64,000 nucleotides of DNA, from contig CM000151.3 in the NCBI GenBank assembly GCA_000004695.1, positions 6,688,001 through 6,752,000 on the forward strand, written 5' to 3'. Origin of the DNA: Dictyostelium discoideum. Its lineage: Eukaryota. Shown in pieces: positions 17,104 through 64,000 of this stretch. Below the pieces are notes generated by a model, which did not search any database, was not told where the DNA came from, and saw nothing but the letters and a program-made list of their open reading frames with translations. A program made the position numbers and the translations under genes. Numbering within the stretch: the stretch's first letter is position 1; every line of letters begins with the position of its first letter.

Positions 17104-17176
17104 TGGTTCTACTGAGACTCGAACTCAGATTACAGGATTCAAAGTCCTGGGTGCTAACCAATTACACTATAAAACC
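17104..17176 (-). tRNA. tRNA-Gln (anticodon UUG), 73 nt.
   Basis: The minus strand reads GGTTTTATAGTGTAATTGGTTAGCACCCAGGACTTTGAATCCTGTAATCTGAGTTCGAGTCTCAGTAGAACCA. The acceptor stem GGTTTTA/TAGAACC pairs, the anticodon loop CTTTGAA gives TTG, and the T-arm is CTGAG-TTCGAGT-CTCAG. It is nearly identical in layout to animal tRNA-Gln-TTG. Confidence 0.9.
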
Positions 17177-25836: not shown

Positions 25837-26165
25837 TTTTGTTTGATTTTTCTTTTGTTGTTTGATTTTTTGATTTTTTTTTTTGTTGTTTGTTTTTTTG
25901 ATTTTTTTTTTTTTGTTTGATTTTTGTTTGATTTTTTTTTTTTTTTTTTTTTTTTTTATTTTTTTTTATTTTTTGATTATTGATTCTTTAACTTGTGAAA
26001 AAGAAAAAAAAAATTATTTAAAAAAAAAAATTAAAAAATAAAAAATAAATATTATTTCTATATGTGTGTTGGAGTGTTTATTTTTTCTTTTTTTTCTTTT
26101 TAAAAATTCGCTCGTTTGATTGAAATAATTATTTAAAAAGAAAAAGAAAAAAAAAAAATTATACG

Positions 26166-26233
<68 letters not shown>

Positions 26234-27231
26234 GGCACCTATAATTAGATTAATTTTGGGGGTTGGGTTATGATGGTTTTTTTATTTTATTTTTTTTTTT
26301 TTATTTTTTTTTTTTATTTTATTTTTTTTTCTTCCAAATTTCGAGATAACTGATCAATTATGATTATTTGAATTATGATAATATTTATTTATCTGTTTTT
26401 TATTTTTATTTTTATTATAATATTTGTGGTGATATATTATTGTGTATTGTTAAATTATAAAATTGTATAAATATATATTATTTGATTATTATTTTTATTA
26501 TTATTTTGGTTTCTAAAAAAAAAAAAATATATTAAAAAAAAAATTTAAAAAAAAAAAAAAGGTTAGAATTTTATAATAATTAAATTTTTTTTTTATAATA
26601 ATAAATTGAAAGAAAAAATCGTACAAAGTAAGAAAATGATGGAAAAAAAAAAAAAGAAAAAAAAAAAAAAAAAATTAATTATCTCAATAAAGACGAGATG
26701 TGAAAAAATATCGGGGCTTTTGAAATTTACCTAAAAATACAATAATGGGGAAATGATTTTTTTTATATATCTGTTTTTAAATTAACAATTAAAAAAAAGA
26801 AAAAAAAAAAAAAAAAAAAACTATGAAATGACCCTTTTATGCTGAATATGTGAGTTTATTAATCTATTAGTTAAGTTTTGATGTTAAATTTTTGAGTTAA
26901 AAAAAAAAATAAAAAAAAAAAATAAAACTATTAAACTGTTGTTACTAATACAAGAAAAATGATTCCAATGGTAGTAAGAAGATATTATTTTTTCTTTTTT
27001 TTTTTTTTTAAAATAAAAAAAAAATAAAAAAAAAAAATAAAAAAAAATAAAAAATAAAAAACAGAAAAAAAATCAAAAAAAAAAAAAAAATTAATTTGAT
27101 GGTTTTTTTTATGTGATTGTTAGATTTTTTTTTTTGATATTTTTTTTAAAAAGAAAAAAAATTGACTTTAAATTAAAAAAAAAAAAATAGATATAAGAAA
27201 ACCTACATAATTGGTTTCAAAAAAAGAAGTG

Positions 27232-27267
<36 letters not shown>

Positions 27268-27819
27268 AAATATTGGATATAAAAAAAAAAAAAATAGAAA
27301 ATAAAAATAAATTATTATTATAAAAAATTTAAAGGCTTGTGTGTATGTAATTTTCTTTTTCCCACAACGATTAATGTGGCAAATTTTTTGACACAACCAA
27401 TTTTTCTTTTTTTTTTTTTTTTTTTTTAATTTAAATTTTGATTTTTAAAGAATTTATGAACGAAATAATTTAGCGAGGTGTAAATATTGACATTAATTCA
27501 ATATGCTTTGATGGTCTTAATTGAAAAAAAAAAAATTAAAAAAATAAACTGCCAATCAACTTTATTTTTTTTTTTTCAAAATCCAAACAGTCAAATTAAG
27601 TTTTGAAAAAAAATCTTTTTTTTTTTTTTTTTTTTTTATTATACTTTTAGTTTATCGTTTTGGTTATTTTTTTTTTTTTATTTTATTTTTTTTTCCAATT
27701 ACTGTTTAAAGGAGATTTTAATTTATCCTTTGGTTTTTTTATTATTATTATTTTTTTATTATTTATTAAATTATTAATCAATAATGGCCAATAAAAGAAG
27801 ATTTTTTTTTTTTTTGACT

Positions 27820-27858
<39 letters not shown>

Positions 27859-28160
27859 AAACAAAAATATGATTTTTTTTCTAATAAAACTTTCAATTAA
27901 AAAGATCTTTTTAGACCAAATGAATTTCCCGTATCAATAATTAAATATTATCTTAATGATTTTTTTTTTTTTTTTTTAATTACTCTTTATATATTATTTT
28001 ATATTATTTTTAAATTTTTACCATTCATATACTTTTGGTGAATTTGGTTTCTTAATATTTTTTATATGCACCAAATAGAGGTTTAAAAAAAAAAAAAAAA
28101 TGAAAAAAAAAAACAAAAAAATAAATAAATAAAAAAAAAAAAAAAAAATACAAATACAAA

Positions 28161-28201
<41 letters not shown>

Positions 28202-28478
28202 AAAAAGAAAAAAGAAAAAAAAAAAAATTGGAGCTTTTTTTTTTTTTTTTTGCAAAAAAAAATTTTTTAAATGATGTTTTTTCTTTTTTAAAAGAATTTA
28301 TTTATTTATTTAACTAGTTTTAATTACCAACACGCAAATATTTTTTTTTTCCTAAAATGATTAAGATAAAATTTTTTTTTTAAAAAAAAAAAATCATAAA
28401 AAAAAAAAAATCAATCAACCTTTAACAACTGTTGTTTAAACACTTTATATTGAGAATTTAAAATATTTGTTATTTTTA

Positions 28479-28486
28479 TTATTATA

Positions 28487-28575
<89 letters not shown>
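28479..28575. repeat. (ATT)n microsatellite of ~32 units. A second copy lies at 29101..29150.
   Basis: Perfect trinucleotide repeat visible in the sequence. Confidence 0.9.
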
Positions 28576-28576
<1 letters not shown>

Positions 28577-28630
28577 ATTTAGTATCACTCTAAAGTAGTA
28601 ATAATGTATTTTTTTAATTTTTTTATTTTT

Positions 28631-28670
<40 letters not shown>

Positions 28671-28792
28671 AAATTAAATTTTTAAGTGGTGTAAATAGTT
28701 GTTTATTTAAATTGTTTAATTATTTAAATAATTATTTAAATATATAAACATATTGAATAAAATAATAAAAATAAATATATAAAAAAATAAAT

Positions 28793-28829
<37 letters not shown>

Positions 28830-29095
28830 TAAATGGAGCGTGACGGCATTTTTTTTTTTTTTTTTTTTTTTTTTTCTGATATTGTCAAATTTTGCTTTAG
28901 TCTCCAATTAAAATTTTTTAGGATGACATTGGTATGTTTAAGTTATTGTTTTTGGTGTATCAACATTAACTTAATAAAAATGATAAAAATAAATTTATTC
29001 ATATTCTATTATGAGTGTGGTACAAGTGTGGGAACAAAAATATAATTTTTTTATTTTTTTTTTTTATTAATACTATTAATCTTGTTAAATATTAC

Positions 29096-29144
<49 letters not shown>

Positions 29145-29966
29145 TTTATTTTTTTGAAAAAAAGTTATAGTGGTTTATTTTTGTAAAAATAATTATTTAA
29201 ATGGTTTTCTTTTTTCTTTTTTCTTTTTTTTTTATTTATTTTTTTTTATTTATTTTATTTTTCCATTTAATTATAACAAATAAAAATAGAATAAAATTAA
29301 AATAAATATTACAATTTTAAATAAAAAAATTATAGATAAAAACTTGATTGAAAAAAGATAATTCACATTGAATATAGTAATAAAATTATTAATTTCATTA
29401 AAAATACTTTTTGAGGAAAAATGATAATTTATAAAGAAAATAATATCATATATTAAATAAAATAAATTTAAAATAAATAAATCTTTATAAATTTGTGAAT
29501 ATTAAACAAAATTTACTATTTTTAAATTTTTTTTATTATTTTCATTTTTTTTTTTTTTATTTTTTTTTTTTTTTATTTTTTTTTTATTTATTTATTTATA
29601 TATATATTTTTATATATTTTTTTTTTCCAAATCACCCACACCAAAAAAAAAAATGAAAAAGTGTGTACCACACCACACGACAACAAATAAATAAAAATAA
29701 ATAAATAAAATAAATGAATTAAAATAAAAAAAAAAAATAAAAAAAATAAAAATAGAAAATAATTTATACAATAGTTTTATTTAATTTTTTTTATTTGTTA
29801 ATTTTACTTTCCTTTTCCAAATTTTTTTGGTAGTTCATCTTTTTCATCTTTTGTTAATGATTGTTTTGTTAATTTTGCATAAATTCTTCTTAATTCATTG
29901 GTTCTAAATAAAAATTTTAAATAAATTTTTTTTTTTTTTTGTTAATAAAATATTTACAAATTTGTT

Positions 29967-30006
<40 letters not shown>

Positions 30007-36129: not shown

Positions 36130-36203
36130 CGAGACCATCAGGGGTCGAACCTGAGACCTACCGGTTCGTAGCCGGTCGTTATATCCAACTAAACTATAGT
36201 CCC
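36130..36203 (-). tRNA. tRNA-Arg (anticodon ACG), 74 nt.
   Basis: The minus strand reads GGGACTATAGTTTAGTTGGATATAACGACCGGCTACGAACCGGTAGGTCTCAGGTTCGACCCCTGATGGTCTCG. The anticodon stem ACCGG/CCGGT with loop CTACGAA gives ACG, the T-arm is TCAGG-TTCGACC-CCTGA, and the acceptor stem has two G-U pairs. The 3' half closely resembles animal tRNA-Arg-ACG. Confidence 0.85.
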
Positions 36204-36903: not shown

Positions 36904-38110
36904 ATGTATAAAATATCATTTTTTATTTTTATGGTATGTTTATTACTGACAAAATTAAATTATAAGGTATTTGCTGATAGTAGTTCATCAAATCCAACAT
37001 TACCAACAAATTGCAATGGCGTTGAATGTCCAATGACAGTGGTCTGTGGGATAGGATATAAACCACATATACCCCCTGGTGAATGTTGTCCAACTACATG
37101 TGAATGTGATACAACCTATCAATGTCCATTACTTGGATGTCCACCAGAAACTTATTATTATACCGCTCCAGGTAATTATAATTTTAATCATCACCATTTT
37201 TTTTTATTATTAATTAAAAAAAAAAAAAAATTATTAATTTTGTTAAATTATTTCCAAGGTGATTGTTGTGCAAGTAAGTGTGTTTGTAATTCAACCTATC
37301 CATGTCCACTTTTAGGTTGTGGTCCAGGCTATACCCCTTATACTCAACAAGGTAAAATTTTGTTTTTTAATCTTTTTTTTATAAAAATAATTCATTAATA
37401 TAAATAGAAATACTTTACAGGTGATTGTTGTCCAAACAAATGTGTATGTGATTCAAGTTATCAATGTCCTTTATTAGGTTGTCCCCCAAACACAATAACC
37501 TATACCAAACCAGGTAAATTTTTTTTTTTTTTAATTTTTTTTTTTTTTTTTAAAAAACTATTAATAAATTATTTTTTTATTTTTTTATTTTTTTTTTATT
37601 AATCTAGGTGATTGTTGTCCAAGTGAATGTATTCCAGATTGTAACGAAAATCAACCATGTCCAATTTTAAATTGTGCCACAAGTTTTATACCATATACTG
37701 AACCAGGTAAATTTTTTTATTTTGTTTTTTATATTTTGAATTCATTTAAAACCAATAATTAATATTAATTATTGATTTTCATTCTTTATTTAAAAGGTAA
37801 TTGTTGTGCCTCAAAGTGTGTTTGTGATCCAACATATCAATGTCCACTATTAGGTTGTGAACCAGGTTACAAAGCCTTTACTGCTCCAGGTGAATGTTGT
37901 GCAAGTCAATGTGTTTGTGATCCAAATTATCCATGTCCTTTATTAGGTTGTGGACCAGGTTATATTGCCTATACTCCTCCAGGTGAATGTTGTGCTAATA
38001 AATGTATTTGTGATCCAAATTATCAATGTCCTTTATTAGGTTGTCCACCTTCCACAATTGAATATACTGCTCCAAATGCTTGTTGTCCAAGTAAATGTGT
38101 TCCAGTTTAA
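36904..38110 (+). CDS. Secreted cysteine-rich repeat protein (signal peptide plus seven ~31-aa Cys-rich modules), 288 aa. Exons: 36904..37171, 37259..37351, 37421..37513, 37608..37706 and 37797..38110, all introns phase 1.
   Basis: The signal peptide is MYKISFFIFMVCLLLTKLNYKVFA. The repeated module is G(E/D)CC(A/P)x(K/E)C(V/I)CDxxYxCPLLGCxPxxxxYTxP. Exons 2-4 each encode exactly one module and end …CCAG|GTAA, and each next exon begins GTGATTGTTGT…, so every junction rebuilds a Gly codon. The exon lengths sum to 867 nt (289 codons). Confidence 0.8.
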
Positions 38111-38245: not shown

Positions 38246-39358
38246 TTAATTATTTTTATTATTGTTATGCCATTTCATAGCAATATATGGATCCCACATT
38301 AAACCAGTTGCAGACATAGCAATATCAGCACCAGAATTTAAAAAGTCATCAAAATGCTCAGGTTTGACAATACCACCACAACCCAAAAGTTTTAATTTAC
38401 TATTTTGTTTCTTAATGATTGAAGAAGCTGTTGAAACCCAATCTAAAGCAGCAGAACGAATTGGAGCACCACAAACACCACTTGTTAAACGAGAAGCACC
38501 CAATGATGGTTCACCAGTGATTTTATCGGTGACTTTCATTGATAAAGTATTGATACCAGCAATTGCGGCAACGCCAGCTCTTTCAGCTTGTTGGAATAAT
38601 CTTTCCATTTTTTCCAAGTCATCCATAACACCAACTTTAATAATGAGTGGAATATTCTTACTCGATAACTCTTTGACCAAAGTTGAAGAGATTTCATAGA
38701 CTGCATCTGGATTATGATAGATTTGACCCTCGCCAGTGACAACATTTGGACAACTATAATTTACTTCAACCATTTTTGCACCAGCATCACATGCAATACG
38801 AACTGTATCAACAAAATCTTGAAGAAAGTCATGTGCACTACTTGCGGTACCTGTAATTGATACGATCATTGATTGACCTGAACCTAAATAACTATGTGCC
38901 AATGCTATATCCTTATAGAGGTACTCTTTTCCCATACTTGGCATACCAAATGAATTGGTAATTGCTAATTGATCCATTGTGGTTGGAATGGTTTGAGTTG
39001 CATGTAATGTTGAACCACTATCTGATTTTGTAAATTGTTTATCCTCACTTTCCAAATCTAAATACATAACATTTGGTACTGGATGACCAAAATGTTCGTG
39101 ACTTCTAATGGTCTTATATGTTGGTAAATCAAATCCTGCTTCCAATGCAAATTTAACCCATTGACTATTTAATAATGGTCCTGCTGGTACACCAATTGGA
39201 CTTGCTAATTTTTGACCTAAGAAATCGATATATTTACTTGGATCTTTATTATCATTTCTATCTACTTTTTTATATCCTTCAATGAATGGTCCATTCTCTA
39301 AATTATCTTCCCAACTTTTATTAATATCATAAATTGGTTTATTAATTGGCCATTCCAT
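38246..39358 (-). CDS. pyr4: Dihydroorotate dehydrogenase, class-1-type family with an active-site Cys; 370 aa, single exon. It is probably the pyr4 product.
   Basis: The DHOD fold motifs are …LGQKLASPIGVPAGPLLNSQWVKFALEAGFDLPTYKTIRS…, the catalytic loop NYSCPNV (class-1 enzymes have Cys here, class-2 have Ser), …LIIKVGV… and the C-terminal FMN/substrate motifs LLGCGGIV…GADIAMSATG. The symbol rests on memory that Dictyostelium PYR4 complements yeast ura1 and is ~369 aa. This gene sits head-to-head with pyr1-3. Confidence 0.75.
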   Translation of the reverse strand: MEWPINKPIYDINKSWEDNLENGPFIEGYKKVDRNDNKDPSKYIDFLGQKLASPIGVPAGPLLNSQWVKFALEAGFDLPTYKTIRSHEHFGHPVPNVMYLDLESEDKQFTKSDSGSTLHATQTIPTTMDQLAITNSFGMPSMGKEYLYKDIALAHSYLGSGQSMIVSITGTASSAHDFLQDFVDTVRIACDAGAKMVEVNYSCPNVVTGEGQIYHNPDAVYEISSTLVKELSSKNIPLIIKVGVMDDLEKMERLFQQAERAGVAAIAGINTLSMKVTDKITGEPSLGASRLTSGVCGAPIRSAALDWVSTASSIIKKQNSKLKLLGCGGIVKPEHFDDFLNSGADIAMSATGLMWDPYIAMKWHNNNKNN

Positions 39359-40000
39359 TTTTTTTTTTTTTTTCTATTATAACGAATTTGAAAAAAAGAA
39401 AAAAAAAAAAAAAAAATATAAATTTGGTAAAAAAAAGAAGTAAAATGAAATTAAAAAAAAAATTAAAAAAAAAATAAAAAATGTCGCGTTTTTTTTTTTA
39501 TTTTTTTTTAAATTTTTTATTTTATTTTTTTTTTTTTTTTTTTTTGTTGCCGAAATATATGGCAATTTCACAATCCGATTTTTTAGATCTTTTTTTAATT
39601 TTATTTATAAAAAAAAAAAAAAAAAAAAACCCTTTAATAGATATAAATCAAATATAAGTTTAATACAAAAATTAAAAAAAAAAAAAAAAAAAGAAATTTA
39701 TTATTAACTTTTTTTTTTTTTTTTTTTTTATTTATTTTTATAAAAAAACGATTTACATTACGTAGTTTAATTAATTAACACACGGAGTGACAAATTTTAA
39801 AACTGTTTCGGTTTTTTTGGACCTTCTATAAAACCGATTACGGCTATTCAAAAATCATTTTTTTTTTATTTTATTTTTTTTATTTTTTTTATTTTATTTT
39901 TATTTTTTTTTATTTTTTTTTTTTTTTCACCTTTCGTTCGCTTTTTAAAAACTTTTTTTTTTTTTTATTTTCTCTTTTTCTTTTTTTTCTTTTCTCTTTT

Positions 40001-40016
40001 TCTTTACTAGTAAAGA
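40001..40016. promoter_or_regulatory. Perfect 16-bp palindrome TCTTTACTAGTAAAGA, flanked by mirror (CT)n/(GA)n tracts, in the pyr4/pyr1-3 bidirectional promoter. A long C/T-rich tract (40556..40666) lies just upstream of the pyr1-3 ATG.
   Basis: The palindrome is seen directly in the sequence. Oligo-pyrimidine tracts are unusual against the A/T homopolymer background of Dictyostelium intergenic DNA. Confidence 0.4.
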
Positions 40017-40447
40017 GAGAGAGAAAAAAAAGTAGTGTAAAAATTAAATAAATAAACAAATTAATTAATTAATATTTTTTAAAATTAAAATCCAAAATCT
40101 TTTTTTGTTATTTTAATATCACTATTAATAAATTTTGATTTTCCAAAATTTAATTTTTTTTTTTTCAAAATTTTCTTTTTTTAGACTGCACCCTTTCAAG
40201 TTCACACACTCCCTACATTTTTTTTAAATTAAAAATTATATTTATTTTTTAAATTTTTATTTTTTCATTATTTAATTTCTTTTTTTTTTTTAATACACGA
40301 TATTTTTATTTTTTTTCATAATAATATCAAATTAAATCTGTAATAAACTTTTTATAAATAAAATAAAAAAAAAAAAAATAAAAAAAACCCTAAAAACAAA
40401 AAAAAAACAAAACAAAACAAAACGTTCAAATAAATTATATAAATTTA

Positions 40448-40478
<31 letters not shown>

Positions 40479-40610
40479 TTTAAAAGGTATGGTAATCTTC
40501 AAATTTTAATTTCATTAAAAAATTTCATCCCGATTATTAATTTCCAAAAATTTTTTTTTTTCTTTCTCCCTTTTTTTTTTTCTTCTCTCCCTTTTTCTCC
40601 TCCTTCTCCT

Positions 40611-40646
<36 letters not shown>

Positions 40647-40693
40647 CCTTTCTTTCCTTTTCTTTTAAGTAATCCAATATATATAAAAATAAA

Positions 40694-40877
40694 ATGGATA
40701 TTTTAAATAGAAAAAAAGGTTGTTTAGTACTTGAGGATGGTACTAAATTAAGTGGTTACTCATTTGGAAGTGAAAGATCTGTTGCAGGTGAATGTGTTTT
40801 TTCAACTGGTAAGTAAATTATAAAGAAAAAAAAAAAAAAAAAATTATAATAAATAAGATTATTAATTTTCAAATATA

Positions 40878-40928
<51 letters not shown>

Positions 40929-43900
40929 ATTTTAGGTATGGTTGGTTATAATGAATCAATTTCAGATCCATCATATACTGGACAAATTTTAGTATTCTCA
41001 TTTCCATTGATTGGTAATTATGGTGTACCATCATTTAGAGAAAGAGATCCAGAATCAGGATTAGCAGTAAACTTTGAATCAGATAAAGCACATGTTCAAG
41101 CAATTATTTGTTCAGAGTATTGTGATGAATATTCACATTGGGCAGCAGAGAAATCACTTTCAGAGTGGTTAAAAGAATCAAACATTCCAGGTTTGTACGG
41201 AATCGATACACGTGCTTTGATCACCAAAATTCGTGAGAAGGGCTCTCTAAAAGGAAAGGTAATCATTGGTGACTTTGATGAAAGTAAATTGGAGTTTGAA
41301 GATATTAATTTACGTAATTTGGTTGCAGAAGTTTCAACCAAAGAGATTAAAGAATACAAAGCTGCAGAGAACAATAAGAAAACTGGCGAAAAAAGAAAGA
41401 ATAAAAAAGTGATCGTACTTGATTGTGGTATTAAAAATAATCAAATCCGTTGTTTATTAAATCGTGGTGTAGATCTTAAAGTTGTACCATGGGACTACGA
41501 TGTGGTTGCAAACGAATCAATCAATGATTACGATGGTGTTTTCATTAGTAATGGTCCAGGTGATCCAAGTCTTTGTGGAAAAGCAATTGAAAACATTAGA
41601 AAAGTATTGGCATTGCCAGTTGCCAAAGCAGTATTTGGTGTTTGTATGGGTAATCAATTGTTAGGTTTAGCCGCTGGTGCACAAACTCATAAAATGGCCT
41701 TTGGTAATCGTGGTCTCAATCAACCATGTGTCGATCAAATTAGTGGCCGTTGTCATATCACCTCACAAAATCATGGCTTTGTTATCGATTCAAATTCTTT
41801 ACCAGCTGGTAGTGGTTGGAAAACTTACTTTATAAATGCAAATGATGCCTCCAACGAAGGTATCTATCATGAGAGTAAACCATGGTTCTCTGTTCAATTC
41901 CATCCAGAAGCTATGGCAGGTCCAACCGATACTGAATATCTTTTCGATAATTTCGTTGATAACGTTTGTGGTGAACAACAACATAAATCACCAATGAATA
42001 AATCTAAAATCATCGATTGTCCAAAAGGTATCAATAAAGTTTTAATTTTAGGTTCAGGTGGTCTTTCAATTGGTCAAGCTGGTGAATTTGATTATTCTGG
42101 TTCTCAAGCTATCAAAGCACTCAAAGAAGAAGGTATTAAAACCATTTTAATTAATCCAAATATCGCAACAGTTCAAACTTCACCAGGTCTTGCCGATAAA
42201 GTTTATTTCCTTCCAGTTAATGCTTCCTCTGTTCAAAAAGTAATTGAAAATGAAAATCCAGATGGTATTTTAGTAACTTTTGGTGGTCAAACAGCTTTGA
42301 ATTGTGGTATTGAACTCTATAAATCTGGTATACTCGAGAAATATAATTGTAAAGTATTGGGTACTCCAATTGAAACTATCATTGCCACTGAAGATAGAGG
42401 TATCTTTGCAGAGAAATTATCAGAAATCAATGAACGTATCGCACCATCAATGGCTTGTAATAGTTTAGAGGAATCTTTGATTGAAGCAGAGAAAATTGGT
42501 TATCCAGTCATTGTTAGAGCTGCCTATTGTTTGGGTGGTTTAGGTTCTGGTTTCGCCGATAATAAAGAACAACTCACAGCATTGGTCACTGAAGCAATGG
42601 CAACCTCTTCACAAGTTTTGGTTGAAAAATCACTCAAAGGTTGGAAAGAAATTGAATATGAAGTTTTAAGAGATAGTAAAGACAATTGTATCACCGTTTG
42701 TAATATGGAAAATTTCGATCCACTCGGTATTCATACTGGTGAATCAATCGTCGTTGCACCATCACAAACACTTTCAGATAGAGAATATCAAATGTTAAGA
42801 GAAACTGCAATTAAAACCGTTCGTCATCTTGGTGTAATTGGTGAATGTAATATTCAATATTCCCTCAATCCATATAGCGAAGAATATTGTATCATTGAAG
42901 TTAATGCACGTCTTTCACGTAGTTCAGCATTGGCAAGTAAAGCAACCGGTTATCCACTTGCTTTCATCTCTGCCAAAGTTGCTTTGGGTTATGATTTAGC
43001 AGCATTAAGAAATACAATCACAAAGAAAACTACAGCATGTTTCGAACCTTCATTGGATTATTTAGTTGTTAAAATGCCACGTTGGGATTTAAAGAAATTC
43101 ACTCGTGTTTCCAATAAAATTTCATCATCAATGAAATCAGTTGGTGAAGTTATGTCAATTGGTAGAAAATTTGAAGAAGCAATTCAAAAAGCAATTAGAA
43201 TGGTTATGGATGGTGCAGTTGAAGGTTTCCAAGCTGGTGTTTTCCCAACCTCTGATGAAGAACTTGAACATCCAACTAATAATCGTATTTTAGTATTGGC
43301 AAGTGCTTTCAAAGATGGTTATTCCATTGATAGAGTACATCAATTAACAAAGATTGATAAATGGTTCTTAACAAAACTTAAAGCAATCATCGATTTAGAG
43401 AATCATTTATCAACCTATAAAGAACCATCACAAATTCCATCAGAGATTTTGAAATTCTCAAAACAACAAGGTTTCTCTGATAAACAAATCGCCAGAGCAG
43501 TTGGTACCACAGAATTGAATGTTAGAGATTATAGAAAGAAAATGGGTATCATTCCATGTACAAAACATATCGATACAGTTGCTGCAGAATTCCCAGCTCA
43601 AAACAATTATCTTTACATGACTTACAATGGTGAAACCAATGATGTAAATATCAATGAAAAATCTTATATCACATTAGGTTCAGGTTCATATCGTATTGGT
43701 AGTAGTGTTGAGTTTGATTGGTGCGCAGTTAGTTGTATTCGTACATTACGTAGTTTAGGTTTGAAATCAATTATGATCAATTTCAATCCAGAGACTGTTA
43801 GTACTGATTATGATGAATGCGATTATCTCTACTTTGAAGAACTCTCATTGGAAAGAGTATTGGATATCTATGAACGTGGTGGTCCAAATTCAAATCATGG

Positions 43901-46900
43901 TGTAATATTATCAGTTGGTGGTCAAATTCCAAACAATTTAGCCATTCCATTATCACGTTGTAATGTTAAAGTTTTAGGTACTCATCCAGATATGATTGAT
44001 TCAGCTGAAAATCGTTATAAGTTCTCACGTCTTTTAGATACCATTGGAATTGATCAACCACTTTGGAAAGAATTAACAAGTGTTTCCGATACAAAAGATT
44101 TCTGTGAATCTGTTGGTTTCCCATGTTTAGTTCGTCCATCTTATGTACTCTCTGGTGCTGCTATGAATGTAGTTCACTCTTCACAAGATCTCGAAACATT
44201 CCTTACTGAAGCTGCTGCAGTTTCACGTGATCATCCAGTTGTCATTTCAAAATTCATTCAAGAAGCTAAAGAGATTGAAATTGATGCTGTCGCCGATAAT
44301 GGTCGTATTGTTTTATTCGCAATTAGTGAACATGTTGAAAATGCCGGTGTACACAGTGGTGATGCTACCATTGTTTGTCCAGCTCAAGATCTTGATGATG
44401 CCACCATCCTCAAGGTTGAAGAAACCGCTAGAAAGATCGCTGAAGCACTCAATGTCAGTGGTCCATTCAATATTCAATTCATTGCTAAAAACAATGAAAT
44501 CAAAGTTATCGAATGTAATTTACGTTGTTCACGTTCTTTCCCATTCGTTAGTAAAACATTAAATATCAATTTTATCGAATTAGCAACTAAAATCATCATT
44601 AAACATCAATATGATCTTCCAGTTGTAAATCCAATCAATTATGTTGGTGTCAAAGTACCACAATTCTCATTCATTCGTCTTAAAGGTGCAGATCCAGTTT
44701 TAGGTGTAGAAATGGCATCCACTGGTGAGGTAGCATGTTTTGGTAATACTCGTGAAGAAGCTTACGTCAAGGGTTTAATTTCTACTGGTTTCAAAGCACC
44801 AGAAAAAAATGTACTCCTTTCAATTGGTTCATTCAAAGAGAAACATGAATTCCTTCCATCAGCTCATAAATTAATTAAATTAGGTTATACCTTATTTGGT
44901 ACTCAAGGCACTGCCGATTTCTACAGTGAAAATGGTGTTCCAGTAACTCAACTCAATTGGGATGAAGAGGATTTAGGTGAAAATGTAATTCAAAAGAAAA
45001 TGACTGAAAATACAATTCATCTCTTCATTAATTTACCATCAAAGAATAAATATCGTCGTCCATCTTCATTCATGTCAAGAGGTTATTCATTACGTCGTGT
45101 TGCTATCGATTTCCAAGTACCACTCATTACCAACATCAAATGTGCTAAATTATTCGTCGATTCTTTATCCTACATGAAAGGTCCAATGCCAATTGAAAAT
45201 GTTGATTGGAGAACAAGTAATAAGATCATTCGTTTACCAGGTTTAGTTGATGTTCATGTTCATCTTAGAGAACCAGGTGCCACTCATAAAGAAGATTGGG
45301 ACAGTGGTACAGCAACTGCATTAGCTGGTGGTTTCACCATGGTTGGTGCTATGCCAAACACTAATCCAGCCATTATGGATGATGCATCATTTGAACTTTG
45401 TAAATCATTGGCAGCCTCAAAAGCACGTTGTGATTATGGTATTTTCATTGGTGCCACTTTTACCAATACAACAACCGCTGGTAAATTCGCATCCGATGCC
45501 ATGGGTATGAAAATGTATCTCGAAGAAACCTTTGCTCCACTTCCATTAAAAGATGATATCAACGTTTGGAGAGATCATATTATGAATTGGCCAGGTACAA
45601 CACCAATTTGTGTTCATGCTGATGGTAGAAATCTTGCAGCAATTCTCTTATTAGGTTGGATGTATGATAAACATATGCATGTTTGCCACGTTTCACATAA
45701 AGAAGAGATTGATATTATTCGTGATGCAAAGAAACGTGGTATGAAATTATCATGTGAAGTTTCACCACATCATTTAACCCTTTGTGATAAAGATATTCCA
45801 CGTATTGGTGCTGGTCAATCTGAAGTTCGTCCAAAACTTGGAACTGAAGAAGATTTGAATGCACTCTGGGACAATATCGATTACATTGATATGATTGCAA
45901 CCGATCATGCTCCACACACTTGGGAAGAGAAATGTAGCGCCAAACCACCACCAGGTTTCCCAGGTCTTGAAACTTCATTACCATTGATGTTAACTGCCGT
46001 CCATAATGGTAGAATCACCATTGAAGATTTGGTAATGAAAATGCACACAAATCCAATTCGTATTTTCAATCTTCCAGAACAACCAGATACTTACATTGAA
46101 GTTGATATGGAACAAGAATGGACCATTCCAAAGAAACCACTCTATTCAAGATGTGGTTGGACTCCATTCGAAGGTCTTCAAGTACGTGGTAAAGTTGTTA
46201 AAGTCGTACTTCGTGGTCAAATCGCTTTCATTGATGGTAAAATCATTGCACAAAAAGGTTTTGGTTTAAATTTACGTTCAAAAGAATATCAAGTTGAAAA
46301 AGAAAGATTACTCAATACTACCAAACCAATTTATGATAAAATCCCAACTGTTCAATCAACAAAGAATCAAACTACAAATATTACTTCACCATCATTAATT
46401 AGTGATTCACCAAATAAAGCCATCAATAAGATTAAATCTACTTCCACTTCTACAACTCCAAATACTCAAGAACAATCAACACAACATTTACCATTAGTTG
46501 GATCAAATCTTGCATCAGCTGTATTAAATAAAAAAGAAGATACACTCCAAACTGCTTTCAATATCTCAGATAATTCATTGGCAGGTAAACATATTTTCTC
46601 AGTTAAACAATTCAATAGAAAACAATTACATGCCTTATTTGGTATTGCTCATGAAATGAGAATTTTAGTTAAGAGATCAGGTGGTTCAGATTTATTGAAG
46701 GGTAAAGTTTTAGCTACTCTCTTCTATGAACCAAGTACTCGTACTCAATGTTCATTCACTGCTGCCATGCAAAGATTAGGTGGTTCAGTTGTCACTGTTG
46801 ATAATGTATCATCATCAGTTGCCAAAGGTGAATCAATCGCTGATACCATTCAAACTTTAGAATCCTATTGTGATGCAGTTTGTATGAGACATCCAGCTGT

Positions 46901-47498
46901 TGGTTCAGTTGAAAGTGCAATTCAAGTCGCCAAAAAACCAATCATTAACGCAGGTGATGGTGTTGGTGAACATCCAACTCAAGCTTTATTGGATGTTTTC
47001 ACAATTCGTGAAGAATTAGGTACCGTCAATGGTTTAACTATCACCGTTGTTGGTGATCTTAAACATGGCCGTACCGTTCATTCTTTGGTTCGTCTCTTAG
47101 CAAACTATCAAGTTAAAATCAATTATGTCTCACCATCTTCACTCTCAATGCCAACTGAAATCATCAAAGAACTCAATGAAAAAGGTATTGAACAAAAAGA
47201 ATATACAAATATCGAATCTATCCTTCCAACTACCAATGTACTATATGTAACTAGAGTTCAAAAAGAACGTTTCCAAAGTATTGAAGAATATGAAAAAGTT
47301 AAAGATTCTTTCATTATCACTCCACATACTCTCACTAAAGCTTCTGATAATATGATCGTTATGCATCCACTTCCAAGAATTAATGAAATTAGTCCAGAAG
47401 TTGATTCTGATCCACGTGCTGCTTACTTTAGACAAATGGAAAATGGTTTATATGTCCGTATGTCACTTTTAGCTCTTGTATTTGGTGCTGGTGTTTAA
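40694..47498 (+). CDS. pyr1-3: Trifunctional pyrimidine biosynthesis protein CAD (glutamine-dependent carbamoyl-phosphate synthase, dihydroorotase and aspartate carbamoyltransferase), 2225 aa. Exons: 40694..40808 and 40936..47498 (phase-1 intron GTAAGT...TTTTAG).
   Basis: Exon 1 reads [39 protein letters not shown] and joins [20 protein letters not shown]… (CPSase small-subunit N-domain). The GATase active site is GVCMGNQLL. The two CPSase large-subunit ATP-grasp halves show …[14 protein letters not shown]… and …[14 protein letters not shown]… The DHOase has HVHLREPG, and the ATCase has …[17 protein letters not shown]…[14 protein letters not shown]… The total of 6678 nt gives 2225 aa, the length I recall for D. 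discoideum PYR1-3. Confidence 0.95.
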
Positions 47499-47924: not shown

Positions 47925-48741
47925 ATGACAGATAACCAGGGTTTAAAAAAAGAAGATGCTCAAATCATTGATATGAGTTCAATAAATAATATTGATGATA
48001 TTAGATTAATTATTACAAATTCAAAATTAACAATTCAATTGTCAAAATTAATTTTAAACTCATCTTTTAAAGATGAATATATTGTATTATTCCTTGTTTT
48101 ATTAAATACTGTTGGTAAAGTATTTTTTTTTATAAAAAAAAAAAAAAAAAAAATAAATGTTTAGAAAACAATTTTAAAAAAATTAATAATATTAATAAAT
48201 ATTTTTTTTATTTTATTTTTAGATTTACACTCAAATACAAAATGTAATTTTTTAGTATCAGCATTTGATACTAAATTATATAATTTAGCAAGAAGTTGTT
48301 TAGATACTGATAAATATACATTTGTTGAAATTTTAAAATGTTTAAAGATTATGGATTCTAAAAGAATGATTAGAATTTTATATGAAAAAATCGACTCAAT
48401 TAAAAATAAATATCAAGATCGTAAAGAAAGATTAAATAATGCCAGTGTTGAATATCAAAAACAACTTTTAGAAAATAAATTAAAAGAATTATCATTAGAA
48501 TCTGATGAAAAAGTTAAAGAAGAAAAATTAAAAGAATTTACTGATAAAAATGAAAAACAAAAAGAAATTGAAAAAAACTACAAAGAAAAACAAGATTTAA
48601 AAAAGAAAAAAGAAGAAGAAGAAAAAGAAAAAGATAAAACTCCAATTAAAAAATCTAAAAAAGTTGGTAAAAAATCAAAATCAAAATCAAAATCAAAATC
48701 AAAATCAAAATCAAATGATAATAATAATAATAATAATGATG

Positions 48742-48772
<31 letters not shown>

Positions 48773-50621
48773 AAAATCAAAAGAAGATATTTTAAAAGAA
48801 AAAAGAGAAAAAAATAAAAAAAGAGAATTATTATTTGAAAGAAGATTTGAAAATTCAATTAATTCAATTGAAAATAAAATTAGAGAATTAGTATCATATG
48901 GTTATGAATCAACATTAAGTGGAAATGTTGTAAATATTTTCAAACATTATTTTAAACAAGTTCCATCATCAGTTTTATTATTCTTTTCATTTGGTCAACC
49001 AAAAGCAACATGGAGAAGTATTTGTAAATTATTACATTTGGCTCCATCAGATCTTTCAAGTGAAGTACCATGGTTCCTTAGTGTAATGTTTGGTAAACCA
49101 GCAGAAGAAGGTACTCATGTTTATGAATTTGAAAAGAGTTTAAAAACTCCAGGTTATTTTACAAATGAAGTTGCATTTGAATTAATTAAAAAGTTTAAAC
49201 CAACTTATCCATTCCTTAGAAAGAATTTACCCAGTGGAATTTTAGACAATCAAATGAAGAGATTCATTTCAGAGTATGAAGAAATCGACACATTAATTTG
49301 GTGGTTACATGAATTCAAACATGATGATTCTATCAATTTTATCATTAAACGTATTGAAGATGGTGAAAGTTTAGAAAAGGTTTCCATCGGTACTTTATTG
49401 GAGAAAGCAATGTCATTAAATCAAGATTCTCCATTGTTTAAAGTTTTATTCAAAGCAATCATTGATAAAATATCTGCCCTTAAAGAGAAATTTGTTTTAC
49501 CAGCACCAATTTCAATTTTTGGAGATAAATCTGGTTCAATGGAGGTTGCAATTCGTTTAAGTAATATTGTTAGCTTTATCATCTCCTCATTAACACCTGG
49601 TGCTCATTTAACATTTTTCGATACCAAAGATAACCCATCACCAATTCCAGTAGATAGTTTAGATAATCTCTTCAAATTAAAAGATTTGGTTAAAGCTGGT
49701 GGTGGTACAGATGCAAGTGTATCCCTTTATCCACTTTACAATAATAAAATCGTAAAGAATTATATTGTCGTTGTAACTGATGAAGAAGAGAATTCTTTTA
49801 AACATGGTCGTTTCGCTGATTTATTCATTCGTTATCAAAAAGAAGTTGCACCTAATTGTAAATTGGTATTTGTTTCATTCCTTGCATTACATGCCAAGGG
49901 CCAAATGGTTACAGAGTTACGTTCAAAAGGTATTGAACCAATTCAAATTCTCTTTGATCGTAGTTCTCCAGACGTTTCAAAAATTGATGGCGTACTTTCA
50001 AGTTTATCATGTGAGTCTGAATCCTTTAAAGATCAATTAGATTTATTTGTAAACATCTTACAATGTGTTGGTGATAAACAACTCTACCAAATGATTAAAG
50101 AAAAGAAGAACCGTTTAATGTCATTTGGTTTAAATATTGAATTGGGAATTGAAAATGTATGCTCTTTACTTGGAAATCATAAAACAACACCAATTGGTAA
50201 TATGGCACTTTTAATGATAAAGAATAATTTAAATCGTCTCATTAAAATCTCAAAAGATAACAAGAATGAAAAAGCTGAACAATTATTCACAAAAATACAA
50301 AAGGATTTTATTAAATTGCCAAAGGATGAAGGTATTCAATTCCTTTTTGATTCACTTTCAACTTTAGATCGTTCTTTGTATATTCCACAGTTTGAATTGG
50401 ATCAAGAAATTCAAAAAATGAAATTAGAACAATCAAAAATTATTCAACCTTCCAATGAAAGTAATCAAGATGATAAAAAAAAAGATTCAATTGTCAATAC
50501 AAAATCAATCATTTTAGATGGTGACCTTTCAATTAATGATGTTTCAAGCCAATTAAATGGTGAAAATAAAACAAATTTCATTTCTATCTATTCGGTTTTA
50601 CTAAATACAATTGGTAAATAG
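47925..50621 (+). CDS. Module A of a tandem pair: a protein with an N-terminal helical region, a Lys/Glu/Asn-rich segment, a conserved ~330-aa domain of unknown function and a C-terminal vWA-like domain with a complete MIDAS motif. It is 862 aa if the TAG at 50619 is used. Exons: 47925..48114 and 48223..50621, with a possible donor at 50613/50614 that fuses it to module B.
   Basis: Exon 1 (MTDNQGLKKEDAQIIDMSSINNIDDIRL…YIVLFLVLLNTVG) splices in phase 1 to DLHSNTKCNFLVSAFDTKLYNLARSCLDTDKYTFVEILKCLKIMDSKRMIRILYEK… The MIDAS elements are ISIFGDKSGSMEVAIRL (DxSxS), AGGGTDASVSLYPL (Thr) and IVVVTDEEENSF (Asp), followed by NCKLVFVSFLALHAKGQMVTELRSKG. The layout resembles the vWA of TROVE proteins (Ro60/TEP1: DVSASM…GGTDCS…FTDNETFAG). 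The C-terminal 35 aa (…SIILDGDLSINDVSSQLNGENKTNFISIYSVLLNTIG) repeat the exon-1 motif and end in G|GTAAATAG. Confidence 0.7.
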
Positions 50622-50747: not shown

Positions 50748-54325
<3,578 letters not shown>

Positions 54326-59564: not shown

Positions 59565-60142
59565 ATAAAATTTAATGTGTGTGTGTTTTAAATAAAATAA
59601 AAAAAAAAAATTAAAAAAATTAAAATTAAAATTTTAATATATTTATAAGTAAATTATTTTATTAACTATTTCTATTTATTATTTTTATTTTCATTTTTTT
59701 ATTTTCATTTTCTATTTTTATTTTATTTTTATTTTTATTTTTTTATTTTTATTTTTTTTTATTTTTATCTTTTTTATTTTTATCTTTTTTTTTTTTTTTT
59801 GAGAGGAATAATAAACTTAGATATAGGAGTTTTCTCCTAATTTCTTTTTCATTATTTTATTTATTTATTTTATTTTATTTTATTTTATTTTTAATGTTAA
59901 AAAAAAAACATGATTCAATTTTCAATCGCATCATCCTTATTAGTATAAATTTTAAGATTTTAAGTTATTAAAAAAAAAAAAAATATCTTAAAAAAAAAAA
60001 AAAAAAAAAAAAATTTAAAAAAAAAAAAGGAAAAAAAAAAAAAAATGAAAAAATTAAAAAAAAAAATCAAAAATTAAAAAAAAAAAAAAAAACAAACCCC
60101 ACACAAATTTTTTTTTAAAACACATCATTTAATAATAATAAT

Positions 60143-60212
<70 letters not shown>

Positions 60213-60231
60213 TAATAAATAATAAAAATAA

Positions 60232-60284
<53 letters not shown>

Positions 60285-60699
60285 GCATAATTTAAAAAAT
60301 AAAAATAAAATAATTAAAAAAAAAATTTCAAAGATCTTTAAATGTGTTTGAAAATTATATATTAATTAACTTTTTTTTTTTTTTTTTTTTTTCAAAATAT
60401 TTACTTATAAATATATATATTAATATATTATTTAGATTAGTATTTAAAAATACTAGTATAAGGAAATAACATAAACAGGTTTTTTGTTATTATTTTTTTT
60501 TATTTTTTATTTTTGTAAATAGTGATAATAATAATAATTAGTAATAAAAAAAAAAAAAATAAAAAAATAAGGAGATAAAAAAAAAAAAAAAAAATAATAA
60601 GGAGATAAAAAAATAAAAAAATAAGGAGATAAAAAAAAAAAAAATAAAAAAAAAAAAAAAAGTTAAAGAAATAGGGAAACACTAATTAAAAAAGTAATA

Positions 60700-60867
<168 letters not shown>

Positions 60868-60877
60868 GTTATTAAAA

Positions 60878-64000
<3,123 letters not shown>

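Follow-up and report, generated by a model that had tools for sequence, protein, structure and literature searches.

Head-to-head pyrimidine genes in Dictyostelium discoideum: an ancient CAD-dihydroorotate dehydrogenase pair with an enzyme outside the curated classes and probably of bacterial origin

Why consecutive genes of pyrimidine biosynthesis should stand head-to-head in a eukaryotic genome, and what kind of enzyme one of them encodes, are the questions raised by a locus in a 64,000-nucleotide stretch of Dictyostelium discoideum AX4 DNA (contig CM000151.3, positions 6,688,001 to 6,752,000; hereafter the window), which is AT-rich by composition scan. Here pyr1-3, coding for the fused enzyme CAD (steps 1-3 of uridine monophosphate [UMP] synthesis), and pyr4, coding for a predicted dihydroorotate dehydrogenase (DHOD; step 4), are adjacent on opposite strands and divergent, with nothing credible between them. 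A preliminary description of the locus had given both genes their names and their places on either side of one intergenic spacer, and its coordinates and gene names were exact to the base. The best overall explanation, which we regard as likely, is that of an ancient divergent CAD-DHOD pair in which the DHOD is an acquired enzyme of bacterial type and the spacer regulates both genes.

Both genes, their names and their adjacency are already present in public annotation (P07670, P20054). The pyr4 product is an exact match to XP_643195.1/P07670 (PYRD_DICDI), and the spliced pyr1-3 product, of 2225 residues, is an exact match to XP_643196.1/UniRef100_P20054 ("Multifunctional protein pyr1-3", DDB_G0276335). 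On the CAD side, the listing of open reading frames (ORFs) gives a plus-strand frame of 2186 amino acids at 40938-47498, and an upstream exon is required because the Pfam match of this frame alone begins only at position 30 of the CPSase_sm_chain profile. Read by eye from the sequence, this first exon of 115 nt extends from an ATG at 40694 to a GTAAGT donor, and the intron that follows ends in TTTTAG. The domains of the spliced protein come in the order CPSase small chain, GATase, two CPSase large halves, MGS, amidohydrolase and ATCase. The ORFs and the spliced CAD start together confirm that the two genes diverge across the spacer at 39359-40693. The gene pyr4 was reportedly cloned by Jacquet et al. 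in 1985 by complementation of yeast ura1, and the Jacquet and Faure papers of the 1980s are said to describe developmental down-regulation. An old 369-residue entry (P0002, CAA26674.1), which we take to be the 1985 database record of the originally cloned gene, is only 95% identical to the genome-derived protein of 370 residues, presumably through an early sequencing error or a strain difference.

Outside D. discoideum, CAD and DHOD stand head-to-head in five of seven other dictyostelid genomes, with spacers of 1,324 bp in D. firmibasis, 1,241 bp in D. purpureum, 910 bp in Polysphondylium violaceum, 796 bp in Tieghemostelium lacteum and about 1,620 bp in Acytostelium subglobosum; presence and absence of the pair were confirmed by a tblastn control that included the flanking genes. 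The outer flanking genes are shared only with D. firmibasis, both neighbours being different in all other dictyostelid genomes examined, and the pairing is conserved beyond the adjacencies around it. Since it occurs in groups 2, 3 and 4 of the accepted dictyostelid phylogeny, the pair is best regarded as ancestral and lost at least twice. It is also found on a Logan contig of 2.3 kb and 45% G+C (L092), where a DHOD homolog 50% identical to the window protein stands head-to-head with the exon for the CAD N-terminus across a spacer of 333 bp. This exon shares 55% identity with D. discoideum CAD as against 44% with a chlamydial CarA, and it ends in a canonical GTAAGA splice donor followed by sequence of 17% G+C; in the tree described below, the L092 DHOD groups with that of Ceratiomyxa fruticulosa in the clade that is sister to the dictyostelids. 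The pairing is present in a related, intron-bearing eukaryote outside Dictyostelia, and the arrangement is ancient. D. discoideum has about 12,500 genes, and for three pathway genes the probability of a chance adjacency is about 5e-4; because of this value, and because the pair recurs in six other genomes or contigs whereas its flanks, beyond D. firmibasis, do not, the CAD-DHOD adjacency exceeds chance.

What might hold the two genes together was sought in the spacer. A hidden gene or RNA was rejected: the ORF listing of the spacer holds low-complexity artefacts only and no credible frame, the tRNA scan gave none, and an Rfam search at E<=1 returned only a sub-threshold MIR6426 miRNA hairpin and no family over threshold, the weak hairpin match being due to the palindrome at 40001-40016. 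Scans of the spacer for sigma-70 promoters and terminators stayed at or below shuffle expectation, as bacterial models that are not applicable to a eukaryote, and an inverted-repeat search returned A/T runs only. Sliding identity to D. firmibasis along the whole locus is 0.9-0.97 in coding sequence and 0.35 in the CAD intron; in the spacer it is 0.26-0.68 for the gene-proximal parts and 0.70-0.88 per 100 columns, or about 80%, for a central block of some 560 bp (39812-40375). The best-conserved part of the spacer is thus its centre and not the regions adjacent to the two ATGs. This block contains several G/C-containing islands and a palindrome, TCTTTACTAGTAAAGA, which occurs once in the window and was yielded by none of 100 shuffles. 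The same block also carries, on the plus strand and about 860 nt 5' of the CAD ATG, a TATAAAA at 39827 with a long T-run some 25 nt further on (39827-39870). This is the usual layout of a Dictyostelium core promoter, and, situated in mid-spacer, it could belong to a distal start site or to a transcript not yet annotated.

The spacer of D. discoideum was also compared, by shared k-mers and short-word blastn, with those of D. purpureum, P. violaceum, T. lacteum, A. subglobosum and L092; the best cross-species match has E = 0.05. The sequence AAAAACCGA, which recurs in four species, was rejected as a conserved regulatory motif, being not significant. The spacer data are compatible with a shared regulatory core, and for co-regulation of the two genes through the spacer we consider the chances to be evenly balanced. 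The strongest competing explanation is a frozen accident, in which DHOD was inserted beside CAD or rearranged there, each gene kept its own promoter and the adjacency persists by inertia. Several observations speak for such an accident and weigh against our preferred reading. The spacer is long for Dictyostelium, 1.3 kb being enough for two independent promoters; its gene-proximal parts evolve fast; the comparison just described found no motif significantly conserved across dictyostelid groups; and Cavenderia fasciculata and Heterostelium album have no CAD up to 10 kb away from DHOD, the pair having been broken at least twice, apparently without harm. Inertia, however, would have to account for the survival of the pair in six lineages in which, beyond D. 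firmibasis, both outer neighbours differ, for a spacer of only 333 bp in the one lineage outside Dictyostelia, and for a spacer that is most conserved in its centre instead of beside each ATG. On balance we consider a frozen accident rather unlikely, and we continue with a pair kept by selection on shared regulatory DNA as the preferred reading.

The second question concerns the enzyme itself. DHODs are distinguished here as classes 1A, 1B and 2, and the preliminary description had recognized a Cys-type active site in pyr4 and assigned the protein to the soluble class 1 (with class 1A in view) and not to the quinone-dependent class 2. The active site is as it had been read: residues 200-205 are NYSCPN (encoded at 38744-38761, minus strand), which align with NISCPN of Lactococcus lactis DHOD B, and the 64 family members without exception have S202, C203, P204 and N205. 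The neighbouring loop 207-210 is the sole low-confidence stretch of the predicted structural model. The separation from class 2 also stands. Cys203 occupies the position of the class 2 Ser base, which is absent; there is no N-terminal targeting or quinone domain, residues 1-45 being acidic, Pro-rich and mostly coil in the predicted model; and the two best class 2 models score 58.6 bits against a cut-off of 267 and 58.3 against 448. Bacterial homologs of the same length are collinear with the window protein from residue 3 to residue 370, so that no targeting peptide has been added to the amoeba protein.

Assignment to class 1A, in contrast, did not survive. Membership of the FMN-barrel superfamily is clear from Pfam DHO_dh (PF01180; 75 bits over residues 132-359, above the gathering score), whereas the window protein stays below the cut-off of each of the more specific models: the 1B-type models NF005574 (76.7 bits against 269) and TIGR01037 (65.1 against 270), the PreA model (61.3 against 335), the archaeal PyrD model (52 against 330) and the class 1A model NF002702, dihydroorotate oxidase (50.9 against 301). 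A Fer4 domain, as expected of PreA and dihydropyrimidine dehydrogenase (DPD), was not found in the Pfam search of the window protein. For the 64 aligned family members, the best E-value against any NCBIfam DHOD or PreA model is 2e-25 (1B type), and the best against the class 1A model is 3e-16. When the family profile is run against PDB sequences, it gives 58-61 bits for 1B, 46-52 for DPD, 22-41 for 1A (34-35 for L. lactis 1A, 22-27 for the trypanosomatid 1A enzymes), 33 for DusB and 23 for class 2. Identity to the window protein in a joint alignment is 26% for 1B, 22-23% for PreA and 17-21% for class 2, and structure-based alignments give 15-21% to every solved DHOD or DPD. In sequence and in fold the enzyme is roughly equidistant from 1A, 1B, class 2 and DPD: it is a stand-alone, Cys-base, FMN-barrel enzyme, and the discrete lineage to which it belongs is missed by all curated models.

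This lineage, here called DHODx, is regarded as discrete because its profile matches 599 clusters (50% identity) at E<=1e-30 and only 3,591 at E<=1e-3 among 1.84 billion representatives. Residues K82, N135, C203, N205, K241 and N270 are invariant in the family, so the catalytic and FMN/orotate-binding residues are kept, and a conserved N-terminal stretch, PxYDIxKSY..N...GPF, is specific to it. Database names for its members are inconsistent and include dihydroorotate dehydrogenase, PreA, tRNA-dihydrouridine synthase and hypothetical protein. A DHODx relative is encoded by 476 GTDB species, mostly Chlamydiota, but also Verrucomicrobiota and Magasanikbacteria/Patescibacteria, with minor carriers among some bins labelled Gammaproteobacteria and in one Pseudobdellovibrionaceae. 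A search of plasmids found no DHODx and only 1B-like, class 2 and PreA genes, which served as outgroups for the tree below. We note in passing that a 1B-like "dihydroorotate dehydrogenase" is present on the Klebsiella pneumoniae plasmid pBckp091-1 (L098) and on about 50 similar plasmids of IncFIB type, with a hypothetical gene, a Zn-dependent hydrolase and a dihydroorotase beside it; the group looks like a plasmid-borne cassette for pyrimidine-ring metabolism.

The origin of the amoeba gene was examined with a neighbour-joining tree of 186 sequences (corrected distances, 200 bootstraps), rooted with six outgroups (two 1B-type, two class 2 and two PreA). The dictyostelids are monophyletic in 100% of the bootstraps, with a topology near the species tree, and their sister clade comprises Ceratiomyxa and eight environmental contigs that are short and mRNA-like or intron-bearing, one of them with AATAAA near its 3' end. 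All eukaryotic members fall into a single clade, with 76-77% support, nested among bacterial sequences, and the root is placed among bacteria (Chlamydiota), no more than 2.5% of the 200 bootstraps putting it beside the eukaryotes. Since the eukaryotes are nested and the root lies among bacteria, a single transfer from a bacterium to a eukaryote before the dictyostelid radiation is favoured, and horizontal acquisition from bacteria seems to us quite likely. Some features of this analysis tell against it: neighbour-joining was used with very distant outgroups, the support for the bacterial sister group is only 0.06-0.21, and for most of the sister clade the eukaryotic status is based on short contigs that look like mRNA, together with Ceratiomyxa and L092. 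In Acanthamoeba, another amoebozoan, DHODH is drawn in a model of the mitochondrial electron transport chain (PMC13632651), which is consistent with a replacement in the slime-mould lineage.

The direction of transfer could also be reversed, the lineage being ancestrally eukaryotic or amoebozoan and having passed from amoebae to bacterial associates (Chlamydiota, bacteria of the candidate phyla radiation [CPR] and others). Many carriers do belong to amoeba-associated groups, and the poorly supported bacterial sister of the eukaryote clade includes Magasanikbacteria, in some of which eukaryote-like fusions occur (OPRT-ODC, DHOase-carbamoyltransferase and DHODx-OPRT-ODC). Such a course is nevertheless difficult to reconcile with 476 bacterial species in several phyla as against one narrow eukaryotic clade, with an outgroup root that lies among Chlamydiota and falls beside the eukaryotes in so few bootstraps, and with bacterial genes that are embedded in ordinary operons; we consider it very improbable, and retain acquisition by the amoeba ancestor as the preferred direction.

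These operons are informative as to function. In a Chlamydiales genome whose homolog is 49% identical to the window protein, the order is carA-carB-(GT9)-pyrB-pyrI-pyrC-DHODx, with pyrE-pyrF two genes further. A tblastn census of the best 80 of the 476 GTDB species loci found pyrE at 75, pyrC at 67, pyrF at 65 and pyrB at 62 of the 80, DHODx being usually wedged directly between pyrC and pyrE in tight packing, so that there is no room for pyrK. A crude screen of 82 loci indeed found no ORF with an FNR/2Fe-2S motif beside DHODx, the D. discoideum genome beyond the window not having been searched; as a positive control, a true 1B locus (Monoglobus) has pyrK directly adjoining pyrD. The neighbours of DHODx are biosynthetic pyr genes and not preT, in contrast to the preT-preA arrangement of Escherichia coli. 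Multidomain members of the family are fused to DHOase, OPRT, ODC or OPRT plus ODC, and none of ten such members carries a redox partner. In one metagenome-assembled genome of a Candidatus Magasanikbacteria (L010:5717-10514), adjoining ORFs code for a 750-residue protein of DHOase plus carbamoyltransferase (OTCace) and an 844-residue DHODx-OPRT-ODC protein; two further loci (L033, L075) hold OPRT-ODC fusions resembling eukaryotic UMP synthase, these being eukaryote-like domain fusions in CPR bacteria.

By genomic association and conserved residues, DHODx is a dihydroorotate dehydrogenase, predicted to catalyze step 4 of UMP synthesis. The preliminary description had proposed to abandon this identification if the 370-residue protein grouped with DPD-like paralogs; functionally it does not, its bacterial relatives lying in pyr operons and being fused to pyr enzymes. 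That pyr4 encodes instead a dihydropyrimidine/dihydrouracil dehydrogenase- or oxidase-like paralog, or a dihydrouridine synthase, with the true DHOD elsewhere, is hardly credible and largely refuted, since the operon slot, the biosynthetic fusions and the reported complementation of yeast ura1 exclude the DPD-like reading.

Taken as a mechanism, the favoured explanation would run as follows. An ancestor of Dictyostelia and their sister slime-mould lineages would have acquired DHODx from a bacterium, and the gene would have come to lie head-to-head with CAD. The enzyme would be cytosolic, which we hold to be very likely, and would oxidize dihydroorotate with Cys203 as the base and flavin mononucleotide (FMN) as the hydride acceptor, roles that by homology are highly likely. 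The enzyme would be re-oxidized not by ubiquinone but by a soluble compound, probably the fumarate that serves class 1A, a suggestion that we put forward as possible only; pyrimidine synthesis would then be uncoupled from the respiratory chain. The pair would be held together by regulatory sequence in the spacer that both genes use, with coordinate high expression in growth. With regard to the acceptor, four loci of Patescibacteria type (L062:6639-7976, L075:6655-7974, L090:8670-9995 and L033:6700-7986) have a gene that ends 4-6 nt before DHODx, and its product is aspartase-like in three of them (509-524 bits against a cut-off of 510) and ArgH in the fourth. Both enzymes release fumarate, a possible hint to the electron acceptor; against this, fumarate-releasing lyases upstream could equally reflect clustering of arginine and aspartate genes. 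A bolder version, which we offer tentatively and consider less likely than not, is that DHODx constitutes a fourth class of DHOD, with its own N-terminal module and an acceptor that cannot be predicted from 1A, 1B or 2, and that in the slime moulds it was captured, replaced the class 2 enzyme and was locked to CAD.

How does this locus compare with known systems? Operon-like clustering of pathway genes had been presented as rare in eukaryotes; the pair is real, but clustering of this kind is not unique, as the trypanosomatids cluster all their pyr genes (PMC5803862) and have a bacterial-type, soluble class 1A DHOD (PMC5803862; PMC7052976). As in Dictyostelium, pyr genes are linked there; a soluble, bacterial-type DHOD with a Cys base stands in for the mitochondrial quinone enzyme, as would be the case in Dictyostelium too. 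The differences are that the trypanosomatids have five genes in one polycistronic cluster on the same strand, whereas two linked genes diverge in Dictyostelium; that CPSII, ATCase and DHOase are separate genes, whereas steps 1-3 are fused as CAD in Dictyostelium; and that the trypanosomatid DHOD is bona fide class 1A, whereas that of Dictyostelium fails the 1A model (51 against 301 bits). This cluster is the closest analogue, and the second is URA1 of Saccharomyces cerevisiae, a class 1A DHOD gained by horizontal transfer that frees pyrimidine synthesis from respiration (PMC12945687; PMC8520639). Like pyr4, which is probably of bacterial descent as well, URA1 is a eukaryotic gene for a soluble DHOD of the Cys type, but its product is a near relative of the Lactococcus class 1A enzyme, whereas the Dictyostelium DHOD is only 15-21% identical to solved enzymes. 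To our knowledge, URA1 is not linked to URA2. The Dictyostelium case is further set apart from both analogues by a pairing that has persisted across very deep divergences.

Among solved structures, the closest relative by sequence is the PyrD subunit of L. lactis DHOD B (1B; PDB 1ep1/5ue9; 40-61 bits), which shares with DHODx the NxSCPN Cys loop and the FMN barrel. Enzymes of the 1B type, however, need a subunit with flavin adenine dinucleotide and a 2Fe-2S cluster, PyrK, which is encoded next to pyrD and has no counterpart at the DHODx loci, and they lack the conserved N-terminal extension of about 45 residues (PxYDIxKSY..N...GPF) of DHODx. As to gene arrangement, conserved head-to-head pairs of functionally related genes have been described genome-wide in other eukaryotes (PMC2871058; PMC1487180). 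The CAD-DHOD pair resembles these in being divergent, functionally related and kept across deep divergences; the usual definition requires transcription start sites less than 1 kb apart, whereas the distances given here are from ATG to ATG (1,335 bp in D. discoideum and 333 bp in L092).

The features of the locus are collected in Table 1. Immediately downstream of pyr4, split ORFs at 36904-38110 (plus strand), evidently a multi-exon gene, encode a Cys-rich repeat protein with repeated CPLLGC..PG..Y motifs, which is conserved in D. firmibasis and not in the other dictyostelid loci. On the 3' side of CAD follow two plus-strand ORFs without a Pfam domain (48351-50621, 756 aa; 50762-51781, 339 aa) and a VWA-domain protein of 782 aa (51977-54325, plus strand). 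In H. album, a vWA-TerF-like gene lies directly downstream of DHOD, and the coincidence with the VWA protein of the window is probably due to chance. The window also holds minus-strand genes for tRNA-Gln(TTG) at 17104-17176 and tRNA-Arg(ACG) at 36130-36203, and two stretches, 26001-30000 and 60001-61000, of 10-14% G+C, far under the local non-coding average, which may be long intergenic or repeat-rich regions.

Table 1. Elements of the pyr4/pyr1-3 locus, in positions of the window
Feature	Position	Strand	Basis
pyr4 coding sequence, FMN-type DHOD of the non-canonical DHODx lineage, 370 aa, intronless	38246..39358	-	ORF; exact match to P07670
Codons for N200-Y-S-C203-P-N205, active-site loop with presumed catalytic base Cys203	38744..38761	-	Translation and alignment
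Spacer between the start codons, candidate shared or divergent promoter region	39359..40693		1,335 bp, ATG to ATG; 14.4% G+C
Central spacer block conserved with D. firmibasis	39812..40375		Pairwise alignment, sliding identity
Perfect 16-nt palindrome TCTTTACTAGTAAAGA, candidate factor-binding site	40001..40016		Identical in D. firmibasis
pyr1-3 exon 1, first 38 codons plus one base, CPSase small-chain domain	40694..40808	+	Pfam start; match to P20054
pyr1-3 intron, 127 nt, GT..AG, about 3% G+C	40809..40935	+	0.35 identity to D. firmibasis
pyr1-3 exon 2, GATase, CPSase, DHOase and ATCase domains to the stop codon	40936..47498	+	ORF; Pfam; P20054

The accessible literature yielded no paper that deals with the class or origin of the Dictyostelium DHOD, with the pairing of pyr4 and pyr1-3 or with this lineage of bacterial DHODs; as far as the literature was searched, the assignment of the enzyme to this lineage, its probable acquisition from outside and the evolutionary depth of the pair seem not to have been described. 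The class of a DHOD sets how pyrimidine synthesis is coupled to respiration and oxygen and how it responds to drugs. Inhibitors of class 2 (brequinar, atovaquone-like compounds, olorofim) do not hit class 1 enzymes. With a DHOD outside the curated classes in a model organism, experiments gain ready access to a lineage of about 600 clusters, one that serves the pyrimidine supply of many Chlamydiota, Verrucomicrobiota and CPR bacteria. In the CAD-DHOD pair, consecutive genes of one pathway, one of them probably foreign, have been kept divergent in a eukaryote, and the pair is thus suited to testing whether shared regulatory DNA preserves gene order. If DHODx should indeed be a fourth class, the locus would be a two-gene eukaryotic "mini-operon", and Pyr4 would be the sole member of that class that is genetically tractable and has already been touched by experiment.

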